Source: Candidatus Levybacteria bacterium RIFCSPHIGHO2_01_FULL_40_16 (GTDB taxonomy: Bacteria > Patescibacteriota > Microgenomatia > Levybacterales > UBA12049). Taken from it: 64,000 bases of DNA. Location of the stretch: the NCBI GenBank assembly GCA_001783805.1, contig MFNS01000006.1:34095-98094 (forward strand), given 5' to 3'. The notes under the pieces are model-generated. The model had not been told where the DNA came from and made no database searches. It saw nothing but the letters and a program-made list of their open reading frames with translations. The stretch's first letter is position 1, and each line of letters opens with the position of its first letter. The position numbers and the translations under genes are program-made. Positions 2,400-56,312 of this stretch are shown one piece after another.

Positions 2400-3172
2400 T
2401 TAATTTAAAAACTAAAGAAGAGATTGAAATAATGCGCGCGGGCGGAAAAATCTTGGCGGATGTTTTGTTTGAAGTTCTAAAACATGTAAGAGTTGGCGTT
2501 TCAGAACTAGAGCTTGATCAATTAGCAGAAAAATTGATTTTGAATAAAGGCGGAGAGCCGGGATTTAAAAAAGTAGAGGGATACAAACATACTATTTGTA
2601 TTTCTACGAATGATGTTGTTGTTCACGGAATTCCGACTGAATATAAATTAAAAGAAGGCGATGTAATTGGTATAGATTGCGGGGTGTACTATAAAGGATT
2701 TCATACGGATATGGCGCAAACGCTTCGCGTTTCAACTCAAAACTCAAAGCTCAAAACTCAAAACTACAATAAGATCGATAAATTTTTGCAGGCTGGAGAA
2801 AAAGCGATGTGGAAGGGAATAAAAGCTGCTAAGCCGGGAAATAGGATTGGAGACATCTCCAAAGCAATTCAGGGGGTGGTAGAAGGGCAAGGCTATGCAG
2901 TCGTTAGAAGCCTAATCGGGCATGGGGTTGGAAAAGAGCTTCATGAGGATCCTGAAGTTCCGGGATTTCTGGATGATCCTGCCTTGGAAACTCCTCTTTT
3001 GAAAGAGGGAATGACGATAGCGATTGAGGCAATCTACAATATGGGTAAAAGTGACGTTGTTTATTCAGGAAATGACGGATGGACGATAAAAAGTAAAGAC
3101 GGAAGCCTATCTGGACTTTTTGAACGGACAATTGCCATTACTCGTCAAGAACCAATTATTTTAACGAAATAG
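2396..3172 (+). CDS. map: methionine aminopeptidase type I
   Basis: MetAP motifs (HGIP, GFHTD, metal ligands); ATGA overlap with cmk; carries an in-frame heptamer-repeat insert. Confidence 0.9.
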   Translation: MINLKTKEEIEIMRAGGKILADVLFEVLKHVRVGVSELELDQLAEKLILNKGGEPGFKKVEGYKHTICISTNDVVVHGIPTEYKLKEGDVIGIDCGVYYKGFHTDMAQTLRVSTQNSKLKTQNYNKIDKFLQAGEKAMWKGIKAAKPGNRIGDISKAIQGVVEGQGYAVVRSLIGHGVGKELHEDPEVPGFLDDPALETPLLKEGMTIAIEAIYNMGKSDVVYSGNDGWTIKSKDGSLSGLFERTIAITRQEPIILTK

Positions 3173-3201
3173 TTGCCCTTTGTAGGCTGGTTTGATATAA
3201 T
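3173..3201 (+). promoter_or_regulatory. candidate sigma70-type promoter for infA (-35 TTGCCC, extended -10 TGaTATAAT)
   Basis: TTGCCC, 17 nt spacer, TG-n-TATAAT about 90 nt upstream of infA ATG. Confidence 0.4.
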
Positions 3202-3210
3202 ATACAGTGT

Positions 3211-3281
3211 TAATTTCTAATTTCTAATTCCTAATTTCTAAAAATATTTAGGTCAATTAGGTCAATTAGTGATTAGGAATT
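3211..3281. repeat. heptamer tandem repeats (TAATTTC x4) plus imperfect inverted repeat in infA leader
   Basis: taatttc taatttc taattcc taatttc; aattcctaat ... attaggaatt inverted arms. Confidence 0.6.
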
Positions 3282-3288
3282 TTTTATT

Positions 3289-3507
3289 ATGGCTCATCAG
3301 GGATCTTTTGAGATAGAGGGAGTAGTTAAAGAATCGTTACCGAATACCCTTTTTAGAGTAGAACTAACAAATGGAGTGATAATTCTTTGTCATTTATCAG
3401 GCAAGATGAGGATGAATTTTATTAAAATATTGCCCGGAGACAAAGTAAGAGTCGAAATGACTCTTTACGATAAGACAAAGGGCAGAATAGTATACAGATA
3501 CAAGTGA
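3289..3507 (+). CDS. infA: translation initiation factor IF-1
   Basis: 72 aa S1-like fold with strong IF-1 similarity; classic position before rpmJ. Confidence 0.9.
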
Positions 3508-5187: not shown

Positions 5188-6111
5188 ATGGCTAATCCAG
5201 CGTTTAAGGTAAAAGAAGAAAAAATCGCTGAAAATCACAGCGAATTTGCAATAGAGCCTTTGGAGCCGGGATACGGTCATACCTTGGGTAATGCCTTAAG
5301 GAGAACTCTTCTTACTTCTATTCCTGGTGCAGCTGTAACATCAATAAAAATAACTGGTGTAAGGCATAGGTTCTCAACGATTCCGGGAGTTAAAGAAAAT
5401 GTCGTTGATTTCTTGCTTAATATGAAGGGCTTGAACTTTCGTCTTCTTGACGAATCAAGCAAAGGCAAAGCATCATTATCTGTAAAAGGGTCAAAGAAAA
5501 TAACTGGTGCAGATTTTGATCTTCCTGAGAATGTTGAGATTGTTAATAAAGATCACTATGTAGCATCTATTAATGACAAAAAAGCTAAGCTTGAGATGGA
5601 ATTAACAATTGAGCAGGGATTAGGGTATTCATCCGCGGAAGAAAGACGAAGCACAACGTTGGGGCTCATCCCCACAGATGCCGTATTTACCCCTGTTAAG
5701 AGAGTAAGCTATGAAGTTTCCGCTACCCGGGTCGGAAGACAGACAGATTTGGATAAATTGGTATTAAGCGTCTGGACAAATGGAATTGTTAGTCCGAAAG
5801 ATGCGCTCGTTGAGGCATCTAAAATTTTAACCGCATATTTTCTGCAGGTTTATGAGCCAAAATCTGTGATTTCTTCAGAATCAATCAGTGCAAAGCCGTC
5901 AATTGCAGACAACATTTCCAAATTGACTATTGATGAGCTAGATCTGCCAACTAGAATCTACAATAGTCTTAGAAATGGCGGAATTGAAACATTGGGTCAG
6001 CTTTTAGCTACCACAAAGAAGGACCTGATATCAATGCGTAATATGGGAAACAAATCTATAATGGTCGTTGAAGAAAAACTTAAAGAAAAAGGCGTAGCAT
6101 TAACGCAATAA
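5188..6111 (+). CDS. rpoA: DNA-directed RNA polymerase subunit alpha
   Basis: RpoA N-terminal domain (GHTLGNALRRTLL) and C-terminal domain; start taken at internal ATG after rpsD stop. Confidence 0.85.
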   Translation: MANPAFKVKEEKIAENHSEFAIEPLEPGYGHTLGNALRRTLLTSIPGAAVTSIKITGVRHRFSTIPGVKENVVDFLLNMKGLNFRLLDESSKGKASLSVKGSKKITGADFDLPENVEIVNKDHYVASINDKKAKLEMELTIEQGLGYSSAEERRSTTLGLIPTDAVFTPVKRVSYEVSATRVGRQTDLDKLVLSVWTNGIVSPKDALVEASKILTAYFLQVYEPKSVISSESISAKPSIADNISKLTIDELDLPTRIYNSLRNGGIETLGQLLATTKKDLISMRNMGNKSIMVVEEKLKEKGVALTQ

Positions 6112-6121
6112 ATTGCGTTAA
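6100..6121. terminator. perfect 10-bp palindrome spanning rpoA stop codon (TTAACGCAAT-aa-ATTGCGTTAA)
   Basis: Perfect inverted repeat read directly; no downstream T-tract. Confidence 0.35.
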
Positions 6122-6123
6122 AG

Positions 6124-6171
6124 TTCAAATCTTAAAGCTCAAAGCTCAAAGCTACAGCTCAAATCTTAAAA
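6124..6171. repeat. heptamer tandem repeat array (CTCAAAG-like, about 7 units), intergenic rpoA-rplQ
   Basis: ttcaaat cttaaag ctcaaag ctcaaag ctacag ctcaaat cttaaaa. Confidence 0.6.
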
Positions 6172-6259
6172 CTATTCTAAAAGATTTAAAGTTTTTAGAT
6201 TTAGTTTTGACTTTTGACATTTCCCCCTCTGGGGACAGGTGAGTTTTGAGTTTTTTAAT

Positions 6260-6721
6260 ATGAGAAAGAATGTTTTCGGAAGACAATTTAGCAGAGATAC
6301 GAATGAAAGAAAGTCGCTTTTTAAGAGTCTTATCTCTGCTCTAATTCTTCAAGAAAGCATTCAGACAACCTTGGAAAAAGCAAAGGCAATAAAGGGAGAC
6401 GTTGATAAAATCATAAATCAAGCCAAAAGAGGAAATGAAAGGCAAGCGATCCAACTTTTGCAACGCAGTCTTGGAGTAGAGGCACTTAATAAAGTTATAA
6501 AAGATTTGTTGCCTCGATTTAAAGATCGGACCAGCGGATACACAAGAATTATAAAATTAGGCAGGAGATTTTCGGACAATGCCGCGATGGTCGTGATGGA
6601 ATGGGTGGTAAAACCAGAAATTAAAAATGAAAAATTAAAAATGAAAAATGACGTTAAGAAATTATTAGCGGGAAAAATTGAGGAAAAACAAAAAGCAAAA
6701 GGAAAGGTTGCAAAGAAATGA
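6260..6721 (+). CDS. rplQ: 50S ribosomal protein L17
   Basis: L17 core (GYTRIIKLGRRFSDNA); Lys-rich C-terminal tail partly encoded by heptamer repeats. Confidence 0.85.
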   Translation: MRKNVFGRQFSRDTNERKSLFKSLISALILQESIQTTLEKAKAIKGDVDKIINQAKRGNERQAIQLLQRSLGVEALNKVIKDLLPRFKDRTSGYTRIIKLGRRFSDNAAMVVMEWVVKPEIKNEKLKMKNDVKKLLAGKIEEKQKAKGKVAKK

Positions 6722-7589: not shown

Positions 7590-8135
7590 TTATCTTACGA
7601 ACTTTTTATAAAGTTTTAGAAATTCCTCATCTTTTTCCAGTAGCTTAGTTTCTTCTTCGCACCATAGGGAGTATTTTCCAGGATTATTTTTTACATCGTC
7701 AACAAATTCCTGCCAATTTACCCATTTAACATCTTCGACTTCGTCGCTATTCGGTTTTGGTTCTTCATCTGTGAAGGCAACCATAACCGGACAAAGTTCA
7801 TTCTCTACAATTCCGTTCATCTCCGCTTTGTAGGAAAAATCGGGTAAGATTTCCTGAACATTATCTAGATCGAGTCCTAATTCAAATTCCAATCTCCTTT
7901 TTGCCGCATCAATATTGGATTCATTTAGCATTGGGTGTCCGCAGACAGAATTAGACCATACCAATGGCCAAGTTTTCTTTTTATGACTTCTTTGTTGAAG
8001 CAATAGCTCTCCTCTTGAATTAAATAGAAAAACGGAAAAACCCCTATGTAGTGGGGTATTTACATTATGAGTTGCGAGTTTTGGGGCAGTACCTAAAACT
8101 TTATTTTGTTTATCAACAAGAACTACTTCTTCCAT
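7590..8135 (-). CDS. idi: isopentenyl-diphosphate delta-isomerase, type 1 (Nudix fold)
   Basis: Matches E. coli Idi block HRGFSVFLFN...WPLVWSNSVCGHPMLNESNIDAAKRRLEFELG. Confidence 0.7.
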   Translation of the reverse strand: MEEVVLVDKQNKVLGTAPKLATHNVNTPLHRGFSVFLFNSRGELLLQQRSHKKKTWPLVWSNSVCGHPMLNESNIDAAKRRLEFELGLDLDNVQEILPDFSYKAEMNGIVENELCPVMVAFTDEEPKPNSDEVEDVKWVNWQEFVDDVKNNPGKYSLWCEEETKLLEKDEEFLKLYKKFVR

Positions 8136-8440
8136 AATGCGATTAAAAAGTTAATTAATAAATAAATTAGTAAAGCTTGCCAAAAAAGAATTGAGATGAG
8201 AACGGTACTAAGAAAAATTGCAATTAGTTCCCTTTGTGATCCGTAAAAATCCAGTAAAAAAGCGCCAATTCTACCAAATACGAAAAAAGCGATAAGTCCG
8301 ATGATTGGAGAAAAAATTACAGGAAGAAGTATTGGGCGTCTGGTAACAAGTCTCACTGCCATAAGCGGGTGAAAAGTTAATCCGAGAAGGGTTTTACTCC
8401 AGATATATGCTACGAAAATAAGAAACGTCCTTTTTCTCAT
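8123..8440 (-). CDS. hypothetical membrane protein (3-4 TM)
   Basis: Hydrophobic ORF co-directional with and downstream of ECF sigma/anti-sigma candidates. Confidence 0.35.
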   Translation of the reverse strand: MRKRTFLIFVAYIWSKTLLGLTFHPLMAVRLVTRRPILLPVIFSPIIGLIAFFVFGRIGAFLLDFYGSQRELIAIFLSTVLISILFWQALLIYLLINFLIALWKK

Positions 8441-8670
8441 AATTTTCCGAAAATTTTTAAAATTAATTCATCGTATCTTTTTCCAAGTACGCCATGAAAA
8501 ATTAAGGTAAGAATAAAAGCCAGAGGAATTAAGATTCTCCAGGGGTGATTTCCAAACCAAAAACTGACAGAGGTAAAAAGTCTTGGCAAAAACATCCCTT
8601 TGATTATTTTTTCTTGTTCTTTAGCCCTTTCTTGAAGTTTATTAAGAAATTGCTGCTCGTTCATAAGCAA
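8437..8670 (-). CDS. putative anti-sigma factor (short cytoplasmic N-terminus + single TM)
   Basis: 77 aa, overlaps 3' end of ECF sigma gene; topology typical of anti-sigma. Confidence 0.35.
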   Translation of the reverse strand: MLMNEQQFLNKLQERAKEQEKIIKGMFLPRLFTSVSFWFGNHPWRILIPLAFILTLIFHGVLGKRYDELILKIFGKL

Positions 8671-9245: not shown

Positions 9246-9839
9246 TTGCGACTAAATTATATGACTGAGCGATTAGATCGTGGTTTATCTTCTGTTTTTT
9301 CTGCGGAACAATCCTGCAGGGTCCGCTTTGTAGAACCGAATAACAATCTGGTGGTTCCGGACAGAACAATGCATAAATCAGAGCTGTCTGATAAATTTGA
9401 CGGGTTGGACATAGAATATCTCACTCAAATTAAACTAAGAGAATTGGGGTTTGCTCCTCAAAATGATAAAGAAAAGGAAATGCTCGAGTTTTTCCATAAT
9501 CCCTTAATTCACAGATATCCAGCAGGAGATTCGCCTGCGAGATACTTTATGGAAGTAATTATGGGAAACCATGCAATACTTGCTTCATATCTTCCTCCCA
9601 ATTCGATAACCTCTAATCACAAGCACTCAGATGAATATAAAATTTTAGAAGATTACCATATAACAGGAGGTGAACCTATTCTTAAATTGGATAGTGAAAT
9701 TCACGCATTAAAGAGCGGTATGTCCGTAGAGGTGCCTCTAAATACACCTCATCAGCTTAAAACAGGGGAAAAGCCTGCTTTTACCCTGATTATTATGAAA
9801 AATGCGGGCTTGGTGGATAGAAAAAACTGGCATAGGTAA
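9246..9839 (+). CDS. hypothetical protein, possibly cupin-fold
   Basis: H..H...E...G...H-like pattern in C-terminal half; divergent from sigma gene. Confidence 0.3.
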   Translation: MRLNYMTERLDRGLSSVFSAEQSCRVRFVEPNNNLVVPDRTMHKSELSDKFDGLDIEYLTQIKLRELGFAPQNDKEKEMLEFFHNPLIHRYPAGDSPARYFMEVIMGNHAILASYLPPNSITSNHKHSDEYKILEDYHITGGEPILKLDSEIHALKSGMSVEVPLNTPHQLKTGEKPAFTLIIMKNAGLVDRKNWHR

Positions 9840-12046: not shown

Positions 12047-12081
12047 TTGCACATTATACCATCGGATGTTATAATACCAAA

Positions 12082-12759
12082 ATGCCAGTAAAGAAAAGTC
12101 AAAGGTCAAAGGTCAAAAATCAAAAGTTATCAGCAGTAATCGCGGTGCCGAAAGCAATTAACACCTCCATTAAAGATAAATTGAAACAACCGAAAAACTT
12201 TATTCCATTAATAATTATTGCGTTAATAATTATTGCATTTTCATTGAAAGGATTATTTGTTGTAGCTTTGGTCAACGGAGAGCCGATTGCAAGAATCGCT
12301 GTTGTCTCCGAATTGGAAAAACAGGGAGGAAAACAAGCTCTTTCATCTTTGGTAAATCAAACTCTTATTTTACAGGAAGCAAGGAAGAAGAATATTCAAG
12401 TTAGCCAAGCGGAAATTGATGCGGCAGCAAAGCAAATCGAAGACAGTCTTAAAAGCCAGGGGCAAAATTTGGATACGGCGTTAGCGATGCAGGGAATGAC
12501 CAGAAAAGATTTATCAACGCAATTAAAATTAAGAAGTCTGGTTGAAAAATTGCTTACAGATAAAGTCAAAGTTACAGACAAAGAAGTTGCGGATTACATT
12601 GAAAAAAACAAAGACACTTTCCCGGCTGAAATGAAGGAAGAAGAAATCAAAAAAAGCGTCACGGAGCAATTAAAACAGCAAAAGTTGGGCAGTGCATCTC
12701 AAGTTTGGCTGGCGGAACTTAACAAAAACGCCAAGATCAACTACTTCGTTAACTACTAG
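12082..12759 (+). CDS. membrane-anchored SurA N-terminal-domain-like chaperone protein
   Basis: N-terminal TM then SurA_N-like helical domain; heptamer repeats encode KSQRSKVKNQK near N-terminus; start uncertain (12034 or 12082). Confidence 0.4.
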   Translation: MPVKKSQRSKVKNQKLSAVIAVPKAINTSIKDKLKQPKNFIPLIIIALIIIAFSLKGLFVVALVNGEPIARIAVVSELEKQGGKQALSSLVNQTLILQEARKKNIQVSQAEIDAAAKQIEDSLKSQGQNLDTALAMQGMTRKDLSTQLKLRSLVEKLLTDKVKVTDKEVADYIEKNKDTFPAEMKEEEIKKSVTEQLKQQKLGSASQVWLAELNKNAKINYFVNY

Positions 12760-15099: not shown

Positions 15100-15588
15100 A
15101 TGGATAATTTTGAAAAATTTTACAATAAGGCACTGGAGTTCTTGTCTTATCGTCCACGGTCGGAGAAAGAAGTGAGAGACCGTTTGAAGCTCAAAACTCA
15201 AAAGTCAAAGCTCAAAAGTTCAACTCAAAACTCAAAATTAATTGATAGTATTGTTGAAAAACTTAAGGAAAAGAAGTTTATTGATGATGAAGGGTTTGCT
15301 AAGGGATGGGTTGAAAGCAGGTTAAGATTTAAGCCGCGAAGTTTACGTTTAATACAATTGGAATTAAAACAGAAAGGCATAGATCAAGAAATAATTAACA
15401 ATTTACAGTTAACAGATGACAGCGATTTGAAATCCGCAAAACAGCTTGTTGGAAAGAGGATTGAGAGACTGAAGGGCTTACCAAGGCAAAAAATCTATGA
15501 AAAATTGGGTAGATATTTGGCTTCAAAAGGATTTAACTGGGATACGATCAAAAAGAGTATTGACGAGATATTGGACAAAGGAGTATAA
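15100..15588 (+). CDS. recX: RecA regulator RecX
   Basis: RecX-like helical repeats, directly after recA; contains in-frame heptamer-repeat insert (LKTQKSKLKSSTQNSKL). Confidence 0.7.
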   Translation: MDNFEKFYNKALEFLSYRPRSEKEVRDRLKLKTQKSKLKSSTQNSKLIDSIVEKLKEKKFIDDEGFAKGWVESRLRFKPRSLRLIQLELKQKGIDQEIINNLQLTDDSDLKSAKQLVGKRIERLKGLPRQKIYEKLGRYLASKGFNWDTIKKSIDEILDKGV

Positions 15589-17448: not shown

Positions 17449-17872
17449 CTCTAGGAAGAAGATCCGTTACCCCCTCTTTCTTAAAGAAAGAGGGGGAGGA
17501 AAGTCCAGACAGGCGTAAGGACGGGGATGGAGCGTAAGCTCCGACGCGAAAGCGCTAGTGTTTATACTCTTTGCCCGCATATAGAGTATAAAACAAGTTT
17601 TGAATTAACAAAACTTGAGAGTAACAGAGACGAGCGGGAGTGAAACGCGACAATCCTACCTGCTGCAACTTTCGAACGACACGTTTGAGCATCTTTACGC
17701 AAGTGTCAAAGAAAGGCATCCCGATCGAATCGGGACGTATGTGACTAATTATCACAAACGAGATAGATTACGGCATTGCCTCGCTGAAGCTTCAGCGAAA
17801 GCGGGGATAAAACTCGCCTTCGTATAACTTCGGCGAAGTGAAACAGAATCTGGCTTACTTTCTTCCTAGAGC
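17449..17872 (+). ncRNA. rnpB: RNase P RNA (bacterial type A-like)
   Basis: P1 pairing CTAGGAAGAA/TTCTTCCTAG; P4 strands AGGAAAGUCCAGAC and ACAGAAUCUGGCUUA; GNRA loops (GCGAAAGC, CUUCGG); 424 nt with no credible ORF. Confidence 0.7.
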
Positions 17873-20781: not shown

Positions 20782-21750
20782 TTATGCTTCTAAGCTTTTG
20801 GTGGAATTAATCTTCTGACCGATTTGAGAAAATCCGGTATTAACATTATTGAATTGCGAAGAAGTATTATTGATATGTTTTCCCAAGACCACCATGTTTT
20901 CTTCAACTTTATGAAAATCCACTTGCAGAGCCCGGAGCATTTTAAAAAGATCACGGGATCTGCTTTCTATTTTTTTACCCTCAAAAGCCAAAAGGATTGT
21001 TTGCAGATGCGCGTACAAAGTGGTCGGAGAGACAACGTACACGCGGGATTGTTTGGCAAAATCCATGACATCTAACATGTTAACTAACTCATAATAAACC
21101 GATTCGCTTGGTACATACATGAGGGCAAAATCCATAGTACCTTCTTCGGGTAAGATATATTTTTTGGCGATGTCAGAGATATGTTTTTTAACATCTTTGC
21201 CAAATTCTTTCTGCAAAGCAGAATACTCAGCGCTTTTTACATCGCCTTTTGCCATTCGTTGGAAATTTTCCATTGGGAATTTTGAGTCAATCGGCAAAAT
21301 TCCCGCATCCGTCTGAATTGCCGCATCAACTCTCTCACCGGATTTAAATTGATATTGGATGTGGAAACTATTTTTGGGGAACATCTGGGAAATTAAATCT
21401 TTCAGAACCTGCTCGCCGATATTGCCGCGGAGTTTCGGACTTTTCAAAAAATCTTGAAGTTCTTTCATGCTTCTCCCAATTTCGCTCATTTGCCCGACTT
21501 CTTTTCCCACATCGCGGATCACGGTTGCCGCTGTATCCAAACGTTGGTTAAGTTGTTTGGAATTTTCCTGCAAAGTCTTGACCATGTGAGTTGAGGAAGA
21601 ATCTATACTTGATTGCATGGTCTTGAGCCATTCCAAAAGCGCTCCGTCCGGTTTATTTTTCTGCAAATCCGACAGTTTTTTGTTGAAAAAAAATAAAATG
21701 AGGATAAACCCTAAAATTAAAACCCCAATAACTAAAGGTTCAGCTTGCAC
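20782..21750 (-). CDS. rmuC: DNA recombination protein RmuC
   Basis: N-terminal TM, coiled coil, RmuC core (LRGNIGEQVL, IDSKFPMENF). Confidence 0.7.
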   Translation of the reverse strand: MQAEPLVIGVLILGFILILFFFNKKLSDLQKNKPDGALLEWLKTMQSSIDSSSTHMVKTLQENSKQLNQRLDTAATVIRDVGKEVGQMSEIGRSMKELQDFLKSPKLRGNIGEQVLKDLISQMFPKNSFHIQYQFKSGERVDAAIQTDAGILPIDSKFPMENFQRMAKGDVKSAEYSALQKEFGKDVKKHISDIAKKYILPEEGTMDFALMYVPSESVYYELVNMLDVMDFAKQSRVYVVSPTTLYAHLQTILLAFEGKKIESRSRDLFKMLRALQVDFHKVEENMVVLGKHINNTSSQFNNVNTGFSQIGQKINSTKSLEA

Positions 21751-22026: not shown

Positions 22027-23157
22027 TTAGTCGAAATAGAGCTCTGGGTTAGCAATGATTTTATTCCATGACATTTTTTCCGGGTGGAAGCAAGCATATG
22101 AGCCGATCATCGCGGCATTATCGGTACACAAACTTTTTTCAGGATAAAAAAGTTTAATTTCCAATTTCAAATTTCCAATTTCAAATTTCAAATGATCGCG
22201 GAGCTTTTGATTGCAAGCGACACCGCCGCCCAAAAGAATTGATTTTACCTTGTATTTTTTCGCTGCCCTGATAGTTTTGCGGACGAGAACTTCAATAATT
22301 GATTTTTGGACGCAGGCGCAAATGTCTGCAATGACAGCTTCTTTAAGTTGGGGTCCTGCCGCCAGTTTCCCTCCCGCCAGTGCTCCTTCCAAGCGTTCAG
22401 TCCGCGCTGTCGGGAGCCCTTCCTCTGGCGTCACCCCTCTTTTTAATTTGTTAACTTCGCGCCAGACTGCTGCTTTAAGACCAGAAAAAGAAAAATCAAA
22501 ATCTTTTGAGCCAATCATCGGCCGTGGGAACGTAAAGCGACTAGCAATGCCACGTTCTGAAAGCTTTTCGATTATTGGACCTGCGGGATAAGGTAGATTT
22601 AAAAGCCTGCCGATTTTGTCAAAAGCTTCCCCTGCCGCATCATCTCGGGTTCCGCCCAGCCACTCAAAGTTATTGTAATCTTTCATTAATAACAAATCAG
22701 TGTGTCCTCCCGAAACTAGTAATGTAATTGCCGGAAATTCAATTTTTGATTTTTGATTTTTGATTTTTGATTTTTCGCTAACGAAGTTAGCGAATATGTG
22801 TCCGAGTAAATGATTTACAGGAATTATGGGTTTTTTCCAAAGATAACCTAAAGTTTTTGCAGTTTCAACTCCAATCAGAAGCGATCCAATGAGTCCCGGG
22901 CCTTCGGTTACAGCAATTGCGTCAATGTCTTTAATTTTTAATTTAGAATTATCAATTGCCTTTTCTACTACCGGAATAATGAATTTCAATTGTTCGCGGG
23001 CTGCGATATCGGGAATAATTCCGCCGGTTTTTGCATGGAAAGTTAAGGATGACGCAACAACATTTGCTAAAACTTTAACGTAATTTTCTTTGGGATTTTT
23101 GGAAACGACAGCGGCTGCGGTTTCATCACAACTGGTTTCAATTGCCAAGATTTTCAT
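22027..23157 (-). CDS. tsaD: tRNA N6-adenosine threonylcarbamoyltransferase TsaD
   Basis: MKILAIETSCDETAAAV, HxxGH metal site, Kae1/TsaD fold; two in-frame heptamer-repeat inserts. Confidence 0.9.
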   Translation of the reverse strand: MKILAIETSCDETAAAVVSKNPKENYVKVLANVVASSLTFHAKTGGIIPDIAAREQLKFIIPVVEKAIDNSKLKIKDIDAIAVTEGPGLIGSLLIGVETAKTLGYLWKKPIIPVNHLLGHIFANFVSEKSKIKNQKSKIEFPAITLLVSGGHTDLLLMKDYNNFEWLGGTRDDAAGEAFDKIGRLLNLPYPAGPIIEKLSERGIASRFTFPRPMIGSKDFDFSFSGLKAAVWREVNKLKRGVTPEEGLPTARTERLEGALAGGKLAAGPQLKEAVIADICACVQKSIIEVLVRKTIRAAKKYKVKSILLGGGVACNQKLRDHLKFEIGNLKLEIKLFYPEKSLCTDNAAMIGSYACFHPEKMSWNKIIANPELYFD

Positions 23158-24102: not shown

Positions 24103-24159
24103 AATTTTTAATTTTCAATTTTTAATTTTCATTGAAAATTTTAAATTTCAAATTTCAAA
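24103..24159. repeat. A/T-only heptamer-like repeats with 8-bp palindrome (AATTTTCA-tt-TGAAAATT) between convergent genes
   Basis: aattttc aattttt aattttc attgaaaatt ttaaatttcaaatttcaaa. Confidence 0.5.
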
Positions 24160-25611
24160 TTAGTTTTCCTTTGTACCCCTAAGAAAAATAGATTGCCAGG
24201 GAGCGTAATTTGAAATAAAGGTCTCCGAGATAATTTTTTTACCATTTTTCATTACTTCCCTTGCGAAAGAGGCTCTTGATCCTTCCGCACTGAAATCTAT
24301 TTGTTTTACTGTTCCCTTTGGCAGGGTTGGATCATCTTGGTATAGATCCGGGGGCGGCGGAACTCGGTTGGTAATTACCGGCTGAGTCAGGGTAACTTCT
24401 CTTCCGTCTTTAGTACCATAAAGAAAAACTGAGAGTCTTTGCTCTTCCAGATCGATTTGAGTTTGTACAAGGATGTAGTTACCGGTATCATTTTTGAATT
24501 TTAAGTCGACGCTCGGGACAAAAACAGTAGCATCCAGTCCTGGCAGACTGTCCTGCTCATAATACCCAACCCGATACGCGTGAGCATGCCTCTCCGTAAT
24601 TGGAACCCCCGCATTGAGAATTGCTCTGAAGAAAGTGGTTGATACTTGACAAATACCTCCTCCATCACCAAGCACTGTTTTGCCATTTTGGATAATATAG
24701 GCTTGTTGGTAGCCTGTAAAGGAAGAAACATCGCCCAAGGCTTTGGCAAAAGAAAATTCTTCATTGGGGGCAATTAGAACTCTATTTATTCTGGATGCGG
24801 CCAGGGTAATGTTGAATATTCTCTGAGGTATTGAATGCTGAAAAAGAGAAGTTCCCGTTCCAATCAATTCTTTTATGCCCAAATTGTTTGCTTTATCCGT
24901 AGTTATTTTAGGCGAAAAAGTTTTGATGGTAACCGGAATAACTATTTCTTGAGTTTTTTGTACTAACAATACCTTTTCAAATTGAGCTCTCAAATCTTGC
25001 TTAACTTTCTCCATATCAACCGCTTTGCCTTCTTCAGACGGTTTGAATGCCAGGACTTTTCCGTTTTGAAAAGTGAAAAGCGCATCAACGGGTTCCTTAT
25101 TCACCTTTTCTATAAATGGGGTCAAGGTTTTATTCAGCATGTCTTCGGAATAGCGGTATGCCGGCTGCAAATTTAATCCATTAAAGTATGCCTGAAAAGC
25201 AATGCTAATATTAGAGAGAAATTCATGGGATTTTCCCAAGCCTATTGCCTGCTGAGCAATGAGCTTTTCATCATAGCCAAACTTCAAATCTTTAGCTGAA
25301 ATTGTCGCTATATTCTCCGAAAGTGAAAATGTAAATTGAGTATTTTCAATAGTCTCGTTTCTCTTAGCAAACAATTCCTCGACTTCCTTTTGAGTAGATC
25401 CTCCTACGTAGATGTTATTAAACGTTATTCCCGGATAAACAACGCCGGCGTTCACCTTTTCATAGATAATAAATGTAAAACTTGCAAATAAAAATGCTGC
25501 CAAGACTGCTCCGGTAATAAACCAAAAGCAGGCTTTCATAATGCGTGTAATAATTTTTTTCCGGATTTTTAATTTTTTAGTTTGCTTCATTTGATATACT
25601 ATAGCTGACAT
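24160..25611 (-). CDS. VanW family protein (membrane-anchored)
   Basis: N-terminal TM; VanW core GDGGGICQVSTTFFRAILNAGVPITERHAH. Confidence 0.65.
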   Translation of the reverse strand: MSAIVYQMKQTKKLKIRKKIITRIMKACFWFITGAVLAAFLFASFTFIIYEKVNAGVVYPGITFNNIYVGGSTQKEVEELFAKRNETIENTQFTFSLSENIATISAKDLKFGYDEKLIAQQAIGLGKSHEFLSNISIAFQAYFNGLNLQPAYRYSEDMLNKTLTPFIEKVNKEPVDALFTFQNGKVLAFKPSEEGKAVDMEKVKQDLRAQFEKVLLVQKTQEIVIPVTIKTFSPKITTDKANNLGIKELIGTGTSLFQHSIPQRIFNITLAASRINRVLIAPNEEFSFAKALGDVSSFTGYQQAYIIQNGKTVLGDGGGICQVSTTFFRAILNAGVPITERHAHAYRVGYYEQDSLPGLDATVFVPSVDLKFKNDTGNYILVQTQIDLEEQRLSVFLYGTKDGREVTLTQPVITNRVPPPPDLYQDDPTLPKGTVKQIDFSAEGSRASFAREVMKNGKKIISETFISNYAPWQSIFLRGTKEN

Positions 25612-27089: not shown

Positions 27090-28113
27090 CCTAATTGTCT
27101 GTGGAGGAACATTTGACCATTTTCACAAGGGACACGAAGCATTTTTGAATTATGTTTTTTCTGTTGGCAAAAAATATCTTGTTGGAATAACCAGCGATAA
27201 CTACGTAAAAAATTCAAAATTTAGAATTCAGAATCCAGAATTTATTGAACCTTTTGAAAAAAGAAAAGAATCAGTTTTGGAGTTTGTAAAAAAAGAAAAA
27301 GCTTTAAATAAAGTTGAGATCATTAAAATAGAGGATTTGTTTGGGCCCACTCTTTCTAAAGATCTAGTGATTGATGCAATTGTTGTGTCACAGGATTCAA
27401 AAGATGGAGCAGACATCATTAATCAAAAAAGAAAAGAGCTCAAGTTGGCTGCGCTTAAGGTCTTTGTTGTTCCTCCTGTTAATTCTGAGGACGGAAAGCT
27501 TATTTCGTCCGCGAGAATTAGGAACGGCGAAATAAATAGAGCAGGCAGACTCTATGTAAAACCGGTATGGCTTCAAAAAGATTTAATTCTCCCAAAAGAT
27601 TTAAGAGAAGAGTTTCATAAACCGTTTGGTGGATTATTTAAAGCTATTACAGATTCGAATATTCTCAAAAAGTCTTTGATAATTGCAGTCGGTGACGAAA
27701 CATCCAGAAATCTTAATAAGTTAGCTGTCAATCAAAGGCTCTCTGTGGTAGATTTTAAGGTTGCGCGAAAGAAAAAATTTTCCTCATTCCTAGATCTTGG
27801 TTTCTCAGGAAATGAGAAAGTTGTATTTGCAAATAATCCTGCAGGCCACATGACGCATGATCTTTTCTCAAAAATCTTAGATATTTTTAAATTCAGTTTT
27901 AGCAAGAGGATAATCTTAAAAATAGCAGGAGAAGAAGACCTTGCGGTTTTACCCTTAATCTTGGCAGCGCCTCTGGACACTGTCATTTATTATGGTCAGC
28001 CCCCACTTCGCTCTGCGAGCTACGCGGGGCAGGCAGGCATTATAAAAGTGGTAGTTACAGAACAAAGTAAAGAGCGCGCTTATGATCTAGCCTCAAGACT
28101 AAAGCCTATATAA
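27079..28113 (+). CDS. archaeal-type phosphopantetheine adenylyltransferase fused to DUF359-like (GTP-dependent dephospho-CoA kinase-like) domain
   Basis: N-terminus CGGTFDHFHKGH (cytidylyltransferase HxGH); C-terminal half resembles DUF359 (IAVGDETSRNL...VVDFK). Confidence 0.45.
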   Translation: MPNNLIVCGGTFDHFHKGHEAFLNYVFSVGKKYLVGITSDNYVKNSKFRIQNPEFIEPFEKRKESVLEFVKKEKALNKVEIIKIEDLFGPTLSKDLVIDAIVVSQDSKDGADIINQKRKELKLAALKVFVVPPVNSEDGKLISSARIRNGEINRAGRLYVKPVWLQKDLILPKDLREEFHKPFGGLFKAITDSNILKKSLIIAVGDETSRNLNKLAVNQRLSVVDFKVARKKKFSSFLDLGFSGNEKVVFANNPAGHMTHDLFSKILDIFKFSFSKRIILKIAGEEDLAVLPLILAAPLDTVIYYGQPPLRSASYAGQAGIIKVVVTEQSKERAYDLASRLKPI

Positions 28114-31938: not shown

Positions 31939-32549
31939 AAAAGCTGCTTGTTGCTACGAGAAATGTTGGAAAATTAAAAGAAATTTCTAATTTTCTTTCA
32001 GACTTATCACTTAAAATTGTTTCACTTGATGATGTTGGGATTATTAAAGATATTGAAGAGAATGGAAAAACTTATGAAGAGAATTCTCAAAAGAAAGCCT
32101 TATTTTTTGCTAAGATTTCCAAATTGCCAACAATTGCGGATGATGGCGGAATAGAAATTTCAGCATTAGGCGGCGCGCCAGGAATAAAAAGCAAAAGATG
32201 GTTGGGAAAAGACTCAACAGATCAGGATATCATCAATCACATGACAAAAGTTGCAAAAGAATTACCCGACGACATTAAGGAAGCAAAGTTTAAAACCGTG
32301 ATCAGTTTAGCACTGCCAAATGGCAAAGTTTGGAGCGTTAACGGAGAAGTCAAGGGGATTATTGCCCAAAAACCATATTTAAGAGCGCTCAAGGGCTACC
32401 CTTATCGGTCTTTTTTCTATTTACCCAAAATAAAAAAGTATTACCATGAAGATCAATTGACCCAGGAGGAGGAAAAAGAATATAATCATAGATATAAGGC
32501 AGTTCAAAAATTAAAACCAATCCTTAGGAATGTATTAAGTATTATGTAG
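31935..32549 (+). CDS. rdgB: non-canonical purine NTP pyrophosphatase (RdgB/HAM1)
   Basis: MKKLLVATRNVGKLKE and SALGGAPGIKSKRW motifs. Confidence 0.8.
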   Translation: MKKLLVATRNVGKLKEISNFLSDLSLKIVSLDDVGIIKDIEENGKTYEENSQKKALFFAKISKLPTIADDGGIEISALGGAPGIKSKRWLGKDSTDQDIINHMTKVAKELPDDIKEAKFKTVISLALPNGKVWSVNGEVKGIIAQKPYLRALKGYPYRSFFYLPKIKKYYHEDQLTQEEEKEYNHRYKAVQKLKPILRNVLSIM

Positions 32550-32561
32550 CAAGTATTAAGC

Positions 32562-34071: not shown

Positions 34072-34112
34072 TTGGTAAGCAATTTGGAGTATTACCAATT
34101 GATCAGTTGGTA

Positions 34113-34150
34113 TCCCCTCTTTCTTAAAGAAAGAGGGGATTTTCTTTTTG
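34113..34150 (+). terminator. intrinsic-terminator-like hairpin (CCCCTCTTTC-ttaaa-GAAAGAGGGG + T-rich) 19 nt before secA ATG
   Basis: 10-bp perfect stem plus ATTTTCTTTTTG; 25-nt core identical to rnpB P3 hairpin (17471-17495). Confidence 0.55.
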
Positions 34151-45847: not shown

Positions 45848-46323
45848 AAATTAAAGAAAAAGTTTTTGTTACAAATAATTTCGAAGAGACACAAAAACTA
45901 GGAGAGAATTTTGCAAGGTCTCTCCTTGCAAGTCCGCAAGGAGAGACCTCAAATGTGATTACTCTCTATGGGGAGTTGGGAAGCGGCAAAACAACTTTTG
46001 TTCAGGGGTTAGCGGCTGGCCTTGGAATTAAGAACAGAATTATTTCCCCTACATTCATAATAGTCAGAAGCTATAAATTAAGGATTAAGGATAAAGGATT
46101 AATGATAAATGACTTTTATCATATAGATTTGTATAGGGTGGAGAGCGAGAGGGATCTTGAGGGTTTAGGGATTGAAGAAATTGTAAATAATAAAAATAAT
46201 ATTGTGGTAATTGAGTGGGCGGAAAAATTAAAAAAATACTTGCCTCAAAAAAGAATAGACATAAAATTTTCATATGAAAAAGACAACATAAGAAAAATTA
46301 TGTTTGGATCTTCAAATCAATAA
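45844..46323 (+). CDS. tsaE: tRNA threonylcarbamoyladenosine biosynthesis protein TsaE
   Basis: LYGELGSGKTTFVQG P-loop, SPTFII, HIDLYR; contains heptamer-encoded insert KLRIKDKGLM. Confidence 0.75.
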   Translation: MKIKEKVFVTNNFEETQKLGENFARSLLASPQGETSNVITLYGELGSGKTTFVQGLAAGLGIKNRIISPTFIIVRSYKLRIKDKGLMINDFYHIDLYRVESERDLEGLGIEEIVNNKNNIVVIEWAEKLKKYLPQKRIDIKFSYEKDNIRKIMFGSSNQ

Positions 46324-46627: not shown

Positions 46628-47206
46628 ATGGATAAGGTTAAAAAAGCAATTGAAGTTTTAAGGCAGGGCGGAATAGTTATTTTTCCAACAGATACGGCTA
46701 TCGGCATTGGCTGCAGAGTAGATGATAAAAAAGCAGTAGAAAGATTATTTAAAATCCGCAAAAGACCTGAAAATAAACCAATGTTAATATTGGTTAATTC
46801 GATTGAGATGGCTCAAGATTATTTATTACCAATTTCTCAAGAAATTAAGAATAAGCTGATTAAACGCTATTGGCCGGGAAAGCTTACAATTATTCTGCAA
46901 AGCAAAATTGATAAGGTGCCAAATTTGGTAAGAGGCGGAACAAATACTCTTGGCGTTAGATTTCCCGATAGTAAAAATTTGTTAAAATTAATTAGCGGAG
47001 TGGGCGTACCAGTTGTTGCGCCATCTGCAAATTTTGCAGGCGAGAAAACACCGTTTAGATTTGAAGATCTAAATCCAAAACTTATAAAACAAGCGGATTA
47101 TGTTTTAAATGAAGAAATAAGTTTGGAAAAAAATGTTTCAACTATAATTGATTGTACGGTTACGCCCTGGAAGGTTATCAGAGAAGGAGCGGTAAAGATA
47201 AATTAA
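46628..47206 (+). CDS. tsaC: L-threonylcarbamoyladenylate synthase (YrdC/Sua5 domain)
   Basis: YrdC motifs (FPTDTAIGIG, VRGGTNTLGVRFP, PSANFAG). Confidence 0.8.
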   Translation: MDKVKKAIEVLRQGGIVIFPTDTAIGIGCRVDDKKAVERLFKIRKRPENKPMLILVNSIEMAQDYLLPISQEIKNKLIKRYWPGKLTIILQSKIDKVPNLVRGGTNTLGVRFPDSKNLLKLISGVGVPVVAPSANFAGEKTPFRFEDLNPKLIKQADYVLNEEISLEKNVSTIIDCTVTPWKVIREGAVKIN

Positions 47207-47208
47207 AA

Positions 47209-47565
47209 ATGAAAAATGAAAAATTAAAAATTATTTTGGTACTAGATACTGCAGATAGTCAAGAAATTACAGTAGGTTTGATTATTGATGGCCGGAAAGA
47301 CATTCAAACCAAAAAGGTTATTTTCAATAAGACACAAATTATCCTGCCAATGGTTGATAAGATTCTAAAAAAACATTTATTAGCGCCAAAAGATTTATCG
47401 GAAATTCAAATTAACCTCGGGCCGGGATCATTCACAGGCTTACGGATTGGTCTTGCCATTGCCAATGCTTTGTCTTTTGTTCTCAAAGTTCCGGTTAATG
47501 GAAAAAAAGCCGGAGAAATAATTTTGCCAATATATTCCTCCTCCGCGAAAAGCAAACAGCATTAG
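47209..47565 (+). CDS. tsaB: TsaB (YeaZ)-like protein, N-terminal domain only (short form)
   Basis: ILVLDTA ... GPGSFTGLRIGLAIANAL; only about 119 aa from ATG at 47209. Confidence 0.55.
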   Translation: MKNEKLKIILVLDTADSQEITVGLIIDGRKDIQTKKVIFNKTQIILPMVDKILKKHLLAPKDLSEIQINLGPGSFTGLRIGLAIANALSFVLKVPVNGKKAGEIILPIYSSSAKSKQH

Positions 47566-51075: not shown

Positions 51076-51938
51076 AAATTTTGGGAACGGGACTAGATGG
51101 GCTTGTTGGGTCAAGAATAATTGAGCTTTTAAGCGGTAAGCATGAGTTTGAGAATCTCAGCCTCAGTACGGGAGCGGACATTACGGATAGGAATGCAATT
51201 CTCCAAAAAATCAAAAACTCGGATGCTCAAATCATGCTTCACTTAGCCGCGAAAACCGATGTTGATGGATGCGAATTGGATAAGCCATTAGGAGAAAAAG
51301 GAGATGCTTGGAAAATTAATGTGTTTGGAACACAAAACGTAGTTGACGGATGTTCGGAGAGTAATAAAAAAATAATTTATATTTCTACGGATTTTGTTTT
51401 TGATGGAACAAAAGAAGCTTATTCGGAAGAAGATGCTCCAAATCCGCTCAGCTGGTACGCCAAAACAAAATATGAGGGAGAAAAAATCGTCCAAACTTCA
51501 AAAATTCCCTGGATCATTGTCCGTATTGCCTCTCCCTATAGGGCAGTATTCAAAAAATTAGATTTTACTCGCGCGATTCTTAAGCGTTTACAAGAAGGAC
51601 TTTCTGTAGTAGCGGTTAAGGATCATATTTTTACTCCGACATTTATTGACGATATTGCCTTGGCAATCGACGTTCTGATTGCAGATAATTTACAGGGCAT
51701 ATTCCATGCCGTTGGGAGTCAGAGCTTAACACCTTTTGCTGCCTCTATTCTGATAGCAAAAGAATTTAGTTTGGATTCATCTAAAATCACTGAAACTAGA
51801 AGAGCTGAGTTTTTTAATAATCGAGCGCCCAGGTCTTTCCAACTGGCGCTGAAAAATGATAAAATACAAAGATTAGGAGTAAAAATGAAGACGTTTGAAG
51901 AAGGACTGAGAGAGATAAAAAAACAAGGGATAATTTGA
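51072..51938 (+). CDS. rmlD: dTDP-4-dehydrorhamnose reductase-like (RmlD family)
   Basis: ATGA overlap with rmlB; LGTGLDGLVGSRI Rossmann motif, YAKTKYEGE (YxxxK). Confidence 0.7.
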   Translation: MKILGTGLDGLVGSRIIELLSGKHEFENLSLSTGADITDRNAILQKIKNSDAQIMLHLAAKTDVDGCELDKPLGEKGDAWKINVFGTQNVVDGCSESNKKIIYISTDFVFDGTKEAYSEEDAPNPLSWYAKTKYEGEKIVQTSKIPWIIVRIASPYRAVFKKLDFTRAILKRLQEGLSVVAVKDHIFTPTFIDDIALAIDVLIADNLQGIFHAVGSQSLTPFAASILIAKEFSLDSSKITETRRAEFFNNRAPRSFQLALKNDKIQRLGVKMKTFEEGLREIKKQGII

Positions 51939-52034
51939 AATTTTAAATTTGCAATTTTCAATCAAATCTAAATTTTAAAATTAAAACATTAAAAATTCAT
52001 TAAAAATTAAAAATTTTAAATTGAAAATTAAGTT
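51939..52034. repeat. 96-nt A/T-only low-complexity heptamer-like repeat tract (AAATTTT/AAAATTA units) filling rmlD-ugd intergenic
   Basis: Essentially G/C-free; periodic aaatttt, aaaatta, aaaattc units. Confidence 0.5.
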
Positions 52035-55337: not shown

Positions 55338-56312
55338 ATGGATAAATCAAGAAAAAGAGTATTGGTAGCAGGTGGTGCGGGATTTATTGGTTCGCATTTA
55401 TGCAAAAGTTTATTAGACGGGAATTACAAAGTAATCGCAATAGACAATCTTCTGACAAGTACTAAAGATAATTTAAAAGATCTTCTAAAAAATCCTGAAT
55501 TCACATTTTTAGAGCATGATGTTACCGACCAAATTTCAAATTTCAAATTTCAAATTTCAAATTTGGACTATATCTTCCACTTGGCAAGTCCTGCATCCCC
55601 AAATCAAAAAAGCGCAAGGAGTTACATAAATCATCCAATAGAAACTTTACTTGCAAATTCACTTGGAACATATAATCTTTTGGAATTAACCCGTCAATTT
55701 AACGCTAAATTTTTATATGCTTCTTCATCCGAAGTTTACGGAGATCCCGCAATATCTCCTCAAAAGGAAGATTATTTTGGTAGTGTAAATCCAAATGGAA
55801 TAAGATCTGTGTATGATGAGGGAAAAAGATTTGGAGAAGCAATTACATCTGGGTACGTACGGAAATATGGTTTGGATGCTCGCATAATTCGTATTTTTAA
55901 CACTTACGGACCAATAATGCTGGCTGATGATGGAAGGGTGGTGTCTAATTTCATTAACCAGGCAATAGAAAATAAGCCGATTACAGTTTATGGAAAAGGT
56001 ACTCAAACAAGAAGTCTTTGCTATGTTGATGATATGGTTTCCGGAATAAAACTGGCAATGCTGACTCCGAATACCAAGGGAGAAGTTTTTAATTTAGGTA
56101 ATCCGGATGAGCGAAGCATTCTAGATATTGCAAAGCTTATTAAGAGTCTGACCAATTCAAAATCAAAAATTGTTTTTGAAGATTTGCCTATCGATGATCC
56201 AAAATCCAGAAAGCCTGATATCGCCAAAGCAAAAAGAATTTTAGGGTGGGAACCAAAAGTCTCAACAGAGAGAGGCTTACGAAAAACCATAGATTATTTT
56301 AGAAACATATGA
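55338..56312 (+). CDS. UDP-glucuronate decarboxylase (UDP-xylose synthase, UXS/ArnA-decarboxylase-like SDR)
   Basis: GGAGFIGSHL, HLASPASP, YDEGKR (YxxxK), RIFNTYGP; carries heptamer-encoded insert ISNFKFQISN. Confidence 0.7.
   Translation: MDKSRKRVLVAGGAGFIGSHLCKSLLDGNYKVIAIDNLLTSTKDNLKDLLKNPEFTFLEHDVTDQISNFKFQISNLDYIFHLASPASPNQKSARSYINHPIETLLANSLGTYNLLELTRQFNAKFLYASSSEVYGDPAISPQKEDYFGSVNPNGIRSVYDEGKRFGEAITSGYVRKYGLDARIIRIFNTYGPIMLADDGRVVSNFINQAIENKPITVYGKGTQTRSLCYVDDMVSGIKLAMLTPNTKGEVFNLGNPDERSILDIAKLIKSLTNSKSKIVFEDLPIDDPKSRKPDIAKAKRILGWEPKVSTERGLRKTIDYFRNI

Follow-up and report, generated by a model that had tools for sequence, protein, structure and literature searches.

Heptanucleotide tandem arrays within conserved genes of Candidatus Levybacteria and their probable origin by slippage under a reading frame filter

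Microsatellites with a non-triplet unit are normally kept out of essential genes, because each slip of a single unit causes a frameshift. A 64,000-nt stretch of contig MFNS01000006.1 from the groundwater bacterium Candidatus Levybacteria bacterium RIFCSPHIGHO2_01_FULL_40_16 (positions 34,095 to 98,094, hereafter referred to as the window) raises the question of how this rule can be broken, as it contains short tandem arrays with a unit of 7 nt both between genes and inside genes such as map, tsaD, tsaE, rplQ, and recX. An earlier note on this DNA had described the arrays as A/T-rich blocks inserted in frame into conserved housekeeping genes and had proposed that they are either the frozen products of a repeat-generating process or tolerated low-complexity loop insertions. 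In our analysis, they are heptanucleotide microsatellites, for which slippage coupled with filtering for reading frame is the best explanation and a probable one.

The window has a GC content of 36-39% and a coding share of 92%. Arrays were called with Tandem Repeats Finder (TRF), and a strong array was defined by a score of at least 40 and at least 3 copies. By this measure, the window contains 14 strong period-7 arrays, as opposed to a mean of 0.02 (maximum of 1) in 100 dinucleotide-preserving shuffles, while every other period yields at most one. The period-7 signal is thus genuine and well beyond chance, and the arrays consist of head-to-tail 7-nt units that exceed chance length, as in heptanucleotide simple sequence repeats (SSRs). 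Both the recurrence and the strict period reported previously were borne out: TRF recovers an array at every listed place as well as at 32532-60, together with 2-copy runs at 6240, 22930, and 43666. In the map-infA and rpoA-rplQ spacers, the arrays called by TRF span 3211-3241 and 6120-6163, respectively. Similarly, all genic arrays of the window lie inside intact open reading frames (ORFs) with Pfam-confirmed identities (Peptidase_M24, Ribosomal_L17, RecX, TsaD, TsaE, Epimerase/UXS, and SurA_N), with the ORF hosting 27211-27242 matching CTP_transf_like and DUF359, i.e. a cytidylyltransferase-DUF359 fusion. The description of the units as A/T-rich is accurate for the window, but it is a mere mirror of genome composition, as a relative with 57% GC has GC-rich heptamers, such as GGACTAC. 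A search of Rfam over the window placed no family on any array, and its sole match was a tRNA. The A/T-rich genome and the short-read origin of the metagenome assemblies could invite an explanation by chance, base composition, or assembly artefact. However, the arrays are roughly 700-fold in excess of shuffles and only at period 7, the same arrays are present in independent JGI, ENA, NCBI, and Logan assemblies, the 30-60-nt arrays are shorter than both the reads and the k=141 implied by contig names, and controls of similar GC from outside the candidate phyla radiation (CPR) lack such arrays. We consider this explanation extremely improbable.

A broader collection of 130 loci, retrieved by scanning metagenomes with TsaD and genomes with RpoA, shows that period-7 arrays characterize the Candidatus Levybacteria lineage, which belongs to the Microgenomates of the CPR. 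TRF identified 78 such arrays in the loci of 33 Levybacteria species (562 kb), in which no other period exceeded 9, as opposed to 6 in 776 kb from other bacteria, of which 2 are found in a Shapirobacteria metagenome-assembled genome and 2 on an unclassified small contig. A separate detector applied to 923 kb of Levybacteria DNA returned 78, 44, and 52 period-7 arrays with 2.4-3, 3-4.2, and 4.2-5.6 copies, respectively, compared with 11.4, 0.5, and 0 in shuffles, and no array of period 6, 8, or 9 reached 4.2 copies. A strict model of "2+3 units", in which arrays of 3-4 copies would not exist, was rejected on account of the 44 arrays in this class, as the distribution forms a broad hump that is not cleanly bimodal. 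Species differ in array density, with 0 to 6 arrays per 10 kb, and the units number in the dozens, most of them A-rich. Among 120 arrays in 953 kb of DNA that is 92% coding, 49 are intergenic, 53 fully genic, and 18 located at gene edges. Thus, spacers are approximately 8-fold denser in arrays per base than genes, and yet nearly half of all arrays reside entirely inside ORFs.

The arrays are also still changing. Protein clusters of the window genes include a TsaB that is 7 residues shorter and a TsaD that ends within the array 22156-22193. The two corresponding loci, L003 and L004, align to the window over 20,990 and 20,393 nt, and the only differences are one single-nucleotide polymorphism and two deletions. 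In L003, 14 nt (2 units) are deleted inside 22156-22193, which cuts TsaD short at residue 329, with loss of the conserved CTDNAAM segment, whereas in L004 a 21-nt (3-unit) deletion inside 47200-47233 eliminates the tsaB ATG. Consequently, all indels in those 41 kb consist of whole units within arrays. A third case is found in map, where the window and L057 are identical except for 4.6 vs 1.6 copies, leaving L057 exactly 21 nt shorter. These three loci provide the unit-number polymorphism between close relatives that characterizes SSRs; among the cluster members of the remaining array-bearing proteins, length variants were not seen. The prediction of the earlier note that a unit change would frameshift an essential gene is realized by a natural allele, but the notion that the arrays could be frozen is contradicted both by whole-unit polymorphism between near-identical genomes and by the homogenization of orthologous arrays within each lineage described below.

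Within proteins, the arrays occupy recurring positions. An alignment of 27 TsaD orthologues places array-encoded residues at four sites, referred to here as A to D, and the species sharing these sites have TsaD proteins that are only 45-70% identical. At site B (22742-22775), the array adds 8-9 residues relative to the solved structures 8iey and 4ydu in a variable loop, where residues 129-136 are modeled with a predicted local distance difference test (pLDDT) score below 50. In map, a loop is extended by 8 array-encoded residues, and the uxs array adds 6 relative to human UXS1. Among 31 Levybacteria species, 12 have an array in the same MetAP loop, and these arrays use no fewer than 8 distinct units. 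In contrast, site D (22156-22193) carries only about 2 extra residues relative to TsaD proteins in the PDB, matches in length orthologues in which no array was detected, and is modeled as a confident helix (residues 317-329, pLDDT of 95-98) plus a turn. Its residues align to native ones, and this array is therefore not an insertion, but rather a native segment that has turned heptamer-periodic at the DNA level. The site D DNA has a period of 7 in nearly all lineages, each with its own unit (AATTGAA, TTAATAC, GTTAAAT, TCAATCG, AGAAGCC, and CTAGACG, as well as CTACCCA in the GC-rich relative). At site A, where the remnant in the window is modeled with high confidence, an AATTGAA array of 4.4-4.6 copies in other lineages is likewise without effect upon length. 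The earlier view of the arrays as loop insertions, placed where homologues lack residues, is therefore correct for map, uxs, and TsaD site B, but not for site D. Among 119 TsaD homologues, the segment lengths at all four sites fall into classes 7 residues apart: 15/22/29 at site A, 9 to 16, 11 to 18, 12 to 19, and 13 to 20 to 27 at site B, 20 to 27 at site C, and 10/17/24 at site D. This fits with the survival of 21-nt steps only, although some of the +7 steps are due to a separate 21-nt mini-element rather than three heptamers.

Several observations bear upon the origin of the arrays. The map unit AACTCAA overlaps the conserved flank TCAAC, and in related species this loop contains decayed period-7 sequence of unchanged length. 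At TsaD site B, the arrays of five lineages begin at one and the same base, immediately after GTTAGCG, and their units are only 1-2 changes apart (AAAAATC, GAAATCC, AAATTTC, and GAAATTC) while being homogenized within each lineage. The window and L006 share identical perfect arrays over 12 codons of this site, even though 45% of the other codons for identical residues differ synonymously. Judging from these sequence comparisons, site B appears to undergo concerted evolution, in which unit mutations would fill an array faster than species diverge. Genic arrays measure 30-35 nt, or about 5 units, and have 52% A on the coding strand, and the peptides they encode are enriched 1.7-2.4-fold in Lys, Asn, Ser, and Gln. 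In-frame stop codons are not dealt with through the choice of unit: avoidance of stop-bearing units in genes was considered and rejected, since the consensus unit has a stop in one frame in 28 of 53 genic arrays compared with 38% of random heptamers. Instead, stops are avoided through interruptions, as the particular copy that would place TAA or TGA in frame is altered. In rplQ and tsaB, an alternation of AAATTAA and AAATGAA avoids in-frame TAA and TGA, and the third unit of tsaE reads ATAAAGG instead of ATTAAGG where TAA would fall in frame.

Based upon these features, the following scenario can be proposed. Levybacteria as a whole would have a tendency to duplicate, delete, and homogenize 7-nt units through strand misalignment during DNA synthesis, in the form of slippage and transient template misalignment. 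It is the whole-unit changes and the flank-derived units that point to slippage as the mechanism. Arrays would presumably be born from local sequence, after which ongoing gain, loss, and conversion of units would hold the periodicity while the unit sequence itself drifts over evolutionary time. Selection would then act as a filter. Genic arrays would survive at the few permissive sites, with the A-rich strand coding for peptides rich in Lys, Asn, Ser, and Gln, and point changes would block a stop wherever a pure array would put one in frame. Net genic length changes would be restricted to multiples of 21 nt (3 units, 7 residues), which would leave most genic arrays with about 5 units, and out-of-frame alleles would arise continually and mostly be purged. 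As for the period itself, the length of the primer-template duplex held by the polymerase has been suggested as its determinant, as summarized in PMC4679880 and PMC4692102.

Spacer arrays exhibit features of their own. Many occur as inverted pairs and fold into hairpins whose end lies 1-10 nt ahead of a start codon, often in the absence of a Shine-Dalgarno sequence. The region 6105-6265 has an RNA folding z-score of -4.9, with homologous array pairs in L061, L062, and L071, and 3195-3295 has a z-score of -4.25, with the same element in L060, L071, and L066. The array at 24103-24161 forms only a weak hairpin (z = -2), and the 51932-52031 spacer folds no better than its shuffles. In three Levybacteria loci (L055:8486-8547, L080:8360-8396, and L085:8477-8510), nAACTGA units lie right before the rpsM start and are preceded by partly complementary TCAGTTn runs. 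The SurA-like gene (12060-12085) appears almost leaderless, with a TATAAT box roughly 8 nt 5' of its ATG. In relatives, many spacer arrays begin just past similar CATAAT/TATAAT boxes, which suggests that arrays often make up the whole 5' leader.

The hairpins, as well as the natural alleles, raise the possibility that arrays are kept for a use, whether as contingency switches, as Lys-rich flexible linkers, or as spacer leaders that tune translation. The persistence of the array sites across highly diverged TsaD proteins, the natural tsaD OFF allele, the tsaC/tsaB allele that drops 3 units together with the tsaB ATG, and the proximity of strongly folding spacer arrays (z = -4.2 to -4.9) to start codons would all be expected in such a case. 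There are precedents as well, since a coding heptamer serves as a true switch in neuO (PMC13001214) and TAACTGA repeats upstream of start codons have been proposed to regulate translation (PMC4679880). The unit number likewise sets the reading frame in the TsaD of L003, as it does in neuO. However, contingency loci are typically accessory or surface genes, whereas the hosts in the present case are map, rplQ, tsaD, tsaE, recX, and uxs, and housekeeping genes such as the first five have no obvious benefit from stochastic loss. Furthermore, the arrays have about 5 units rather than the 3-53 of neuO, many species are array-free at each site without any sign of compensation, unit sequences are not conserved, and only a single OFF allele was encountered among roughly 35 assemblies. 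Retention for a use thus appears unlikely to account for the arrays.

Slippage followed by frame filtering does not explain everything, and several points weigh against it. Firstly, one slip from a seed of 1.6-2 copies adds only one unit, so that reaching 3 additional units would take stuttering over several units at once or else a passage via frameshifted intermediates, in genes presumed to be essential. Secondly, sites A and D have become periodic without a change in length, and conversion-like events are therefore needed in place of plain gain and loss of units. Thirdly, the pure array could never have been functional in the genic cases whose consensus unit has a stop in one frame. Fourthly, array length peaks at about 31 nt in spacers as well, which are free of frame constraint. 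In addition, slippage leaves the period of 7 itself unexplained, and because L003 and L004 were picked for proteins of differing length, relative rates of unit change cannot be derived from them. Finally, 25.6% of units are within one mismatch of each other within a genome vs 16.3% between genomes (permutation p ~0.004), and near-identical palindromic array elements are present in several spacers of some genomes. This likeness of units and the repeated spacer elements hint at copying between sites.

Taken further, such copying would imply that the arrays, or hairpins with array arms, are miniature mobile or copy-pasted elements that inserted in frame, as opposed to local products of slippage. 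In locus L075, different spacers (1990-2110, 7800-7920, and 8095-8230) harbor 3-4 palindromic elements that are nearly identical, measure about 72 nt, and have arms made of heptamer arrays, and L058 contains two identical 66-nt elements of the same kind (8380-8500 and 9310-9430); these elements, situated in ribosomal protein operon spacers, are dispersed repeats rather than independent arrays. A CTAATTT/TTAGAAA hairpin likewise occurs in non-orthologous spacers, and one interrupted array, TTAAGGATTAAGGATAAAGGATTAA, is shared by map of L055 and L062 and by the window tsaE. At TsaD site B of L005 (5118-6329), as well as L008 and L017, an in-frame insert of 41 residues consists of two mutually complementary decayed arrays, TCAGTTC ~x8 followed by AAACYGA ~x9, which creates a long hairpin within the coding region. 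Moreover, a dispersed 21-nt GC-rich hairpin element is nested in TsaD arrays. Its consensus, CCCGCTTCGCCGCAAGGCGAG, is translated as PASPQGE or PASxRGE (P-A-S-P-Q/R-G-E) and has the stem CTCGCC/GGCGAG; five copies with at most 4 mismatches were found (L136:974-994, L137:842-862, L138:320-340, L039:10898-10918, and L061 on the minus strand, reverse-complement position 9524). Depending on the species, the element lies in frame inside arrays at TsaD site A, C, or D, and it is present in 11 of 119 homologues. A perfect 34-nt palindrome in tsaE (45917-45950, -27 kcal/mol) is related to it. With its dispersed, conserved, and hairpin-capable copies, a property shared with the array-armed hairpins of L075 and L058, this 21-nt element looks like a very small mobile repeat. 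Genic heptamer arrays, on the other hand, comprise dozens of units and have neither conserved sequence, conserved ends, nor target duplications. Some of their units are derived from the local flank, as in map, their polymorphisms are whole-unit changes within arrays rather than presence or absence of an element, and orthologous arrays have an exact common start with units that drift stepwise. The interrupted array shared between different genes may plausibly reflect convergence, as stop-avoiding interruptions have few solutions. For the arrays as a whole, we accordingly regard a mobile origin as doubtful.

Another reading, also rather unlikely though bolder in its implications, is that Levybacteria, and perhaps other Microgenomates, actively convert stretches of about 35 nt into five copies of a local heptamer, possibly with the help of an enzyme and without a necessary change in length, while seeding inverted copies and hosting the 21-nt mobile hairpin. 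The same trio of heptamer arrays, nested mini-elements, and array leaders before start codons has also been observed in heterocystous cyanobacteria and Beggiatoaceae, where it was never accounted for. If true, this reading would point to an undiscovered molecular machine shared with those groups, in place of passive slippage, and to essential proteins that are continuously remodeled by it.

The arrays of the window are compiled in Table 1 together with the tsaE palindrome.

Table 1. Period-7 arrays of the window and one GC-rich palindrome (positions in the window; + and - denote strand)
Feature	Position	Strand	Unit and copies	Encoded residues or remarks	Basis
tsaD site D (the array of the earlier note)	22156..22193	-	ATTTGAA/ATTGGAA x5.4 (coding strand)	encodes HLKFEIGNLKLEI, residues 322-334	TRF, translation
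tsaD site B	22742..22775	-	AAAAATC x4.9, perfect	encodes EKSKIKNQKSKI; loop insertion	
tsaD site A remnant	22930..22944	-	2.1 copies	encodes KLKIK	TRF
map (MetAP)	2734..2765	+	AACTCAA x4.6	encodes STQNSKLKTQN	TRF
rplQ, C-terminal tail	6618..6651	+	AAATTAA/AAATGAA x4.9		TRF
SurA-like protein, N-terminal tail	12094..12127	+	AAAAGTC x4.9	KSQRSKVKNQKL	TRF
recX, between the first and second helix-turn-helix (HTH1 and HTH2)	15190..15237	+	CTCAAAA x7.0		TRF
Cytidylyltransferase-DUF359 fusion	27211..27242	+	AATTCAG x4.6	encodes NSKFRIQNPEF	TRF
tsaE	46077..46112	+	ATTAAGG x4.3	encodes KLRIKDKGLMI	TRF
tsaC stop/tsaB start junction	47200..47233	+	AAATTAA/AAATGAA x4.9	holds the tsaB ATG	TRF
uxs	55530..55564	+	CAAATTT x5.0, perfect	encodes QISNFKFQISNL	TRF
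map-infA spacer	3211..3282	+	TAATTTC x4.4 plus partly complementary TTAGGTCAA/TTAGGAA run	hairpin just 5' of the start codon	
rpoA-rplQ spacer	6120..6254	+	AAAGCTC x6.4, pairing with downstream TGAGTTT and TTTTGAC runs	small GC-rich hairpin nested	
Spacer of two minus-strand genes, filled entirely	24103..24161	.	array pair AATTTTN x8.6		TRF
Stop of Ham1-like gene	32532..32560	+	GTATTAA x4.1	2 nt before serS	TRF
Spacer with about 100 nt of arrays	51932..52031	+	degenerate AAATTTN/AAAATTA	ends 3 nt before ugd-like start	TRF
GC-rich 34-nt palindrome in tsaE	45917..45950	+	AGGTCTCTCCTTGC-AAGTCC-GCAAGGAGAGACCT	encodes LASPQGE; distinct from the arrays	

A number of other observations were made in the same loci. 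The window tsaD also contains an in-frame block of 68% GC (22341-22440, minus strand) that adds roughly 27-30 residues (VTPEEGLPTARTERLEGALAGGKLAAGPQLKE), is modeled as disordered, and is sporadic in relatives. It was considered as a dispersed repeat, a candidate that was rejected because the block is unique in both the window and the loci. Sequence divergence in L033 is highest within this block, with 4 mismatches and 2 gaps over about 25 nt, and the homology with the window breaks off there. L033, which is otherwise identical to the window, also lacks 54 nt of rmuC (window 21188-21241), corresponding to 18 residues in frame, with no array involved. The TsaB protein (47209-47565) spans 118 residues from its ATG, of which about 55 match the TsaD/TsaB Pfam domain, and has the same length in all cluster members, whereas TsaB usually comprises roughly 230 residues. 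A perfect 25-nt palindrome, CCCCTCTTTCTTAAAGAAAGAGGGG, occurs at both 17471-17495 and 34114-34138 and may be a shared terminator hairpin. Some length variants were examined as potential array effects and rejected. Those of L17 (153 vs 160 residues), which would have equated to a 3-unit change, are only alternative start calls, and the Cmk-Map fusion P0003 bears no relation to the array. The short DUF359 variants P0020 and P0021 are likewise not array frameshifts, with P0021 being encoded on a mirrored palindromic scaffold that is an assembly artefact. Such a scaffold is L135 (ENA ERZ28563591 scaffold_745), a mirror-image palindrome whose two arms repeat the same genes around a truncated DUF359 gene, and as an artefact of assembly it yields false "truncated" proteins in the protein collection.

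The setting of the arrays has several implications. Non-triplet repeats are tolerated here at fixed sites of MetAP, TsaD, TsaE, L17, and RecX and apparently are kept periodic over deep divergence, and Levybacteria thereby offer a natural system for addressing why bacteria favor a period of 7 nt in their long SSRs, a question that has been open since 2007. The arrays also provide a visible route by which CPR bacteria with small genomes gain or reshape short protein segments in 7-residue steps. For the annotation of CPR genomes, they serve as a warning, because an essential gene that seems frameshifted or a "pseudogene" may carry an array allele, and variants differing by 7 residues are to be expected. 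Lastly, the nested 21-nt hairpin, if confirmed, would extend the range of very small mobile repeats beyond the cyanobacteria.

The earlier note had known of no described element with this behavior. However, an excess of heptanucleotide SSRs, cyanobacterial heptamers, TAACTGA repeats, and a neuO variable number tandem repeat (VNTR) have all been published (PMC4679880, PMC4692102, PMC13001214). According to the summaries in PMC4679880 and PMC4692102 of the work of Mrazek, Guo and Shah (2007), the long SSRs of many prokaryotes belong most often to the heptanucleotide class, polymerase slippage has been proposed as their cause, and non-triplet SSR units tend to avoid coding regions. Like the SSRs outlined in these summaries, the Levybacteria arrays are 7-nt tandems in excess of chance with a lineage-specific distribution and with lengths that vary between relatives. 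The former are described there as mainly intergenic and as occurring in cyanobacteria, Xanthomonas, Burkholderia, and actinobacteria, whereas 44% of Levybacteria arrays are found in conserved genes, at fixed protein sites across the phylum and with about 5 units. Literature searches returned no heptamer or SSR reports for CPR or Patescibacteria. The short tandemly repeated repetitive (STRR) sequences of heterocystous cyanobacteria include the units CCCCAGT, TTGGTCA, and CAACAGT, and those of Levybacteria are both different and numerous. The cyanobacterial STRR and GGGGA(T/C)T repeats, as well as the Xanthomonas GGGAATC repeats, have a period of 7, many loci, and length variation in common with the arrays described here, but they consist of one or few G-rich units with up to 26 copies and are almost all intergenic, as opposed to the dozens of mostly A-rich units in Levybacteria (PMC4692102). 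TAACTGA repeats of Beggiatoaceae, cyanobacteria, and Bacteroidetes are located directly upstream of start codons in 2-6 copies, much like the Levybacteria spacer arrays, and the nAACTGA units upstream of rpsM in three Levybacteria even represent the same heptamer, but these repeats have one dominant unit, are essentially intergenic, and are not described as occupying essential genes in frame (PMC4679880).

Among coding repeats, the closest parallel is neuO of the E. coli K1 prophage CUS-3, where an AAGACTC VNTR varies by slippage and a full-length protein is produced only if the unit number is divisible by 3 (PMC13001214). This is a single accessory, phage-borne gene for surface modification, in which 3-53 units act as an adaptive switch, whereas the Levybacteria arrays are spread over many housekeeping genes with about 5 units each. 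The heptad peptide encoded by neuO is RLKTQDS, similar to the LKTQNSK encountered here. Tiny in-frame repeats in conserved genes are also known from Rickettsia, as palindromic elements (Ogata 2000), and from cyanobacteria, as small dispersed repeats (Elhai 2008). The heptamer arrays differ from both by their lack of conserved sequence or ends, and only the 21-nt element behaves as a mobile repeat. The cyanobacterial elements are reportedly 21-27 nt long, hairpin-forming, and nested in heptamer repeats, which would match the 21-nt GC-rich element. Finally, Borg tandem repeats resemble the Levybacteria arrays in being genome-specific, fast-evolving, and A-rich, with about half of them located in ORFs, where they make new disordered segments, but all Borg units in ORFs are divisible by three, whereas with the unit of 7 in Levybacteria each single-unit change causes a frameshift (PMC9879509). 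The Levybacteria arrays therefore belong to a recognized type of repeat, but in a setting not previously reported, and they behave unusually in occupying essential genes at fixed sites across a phylum.

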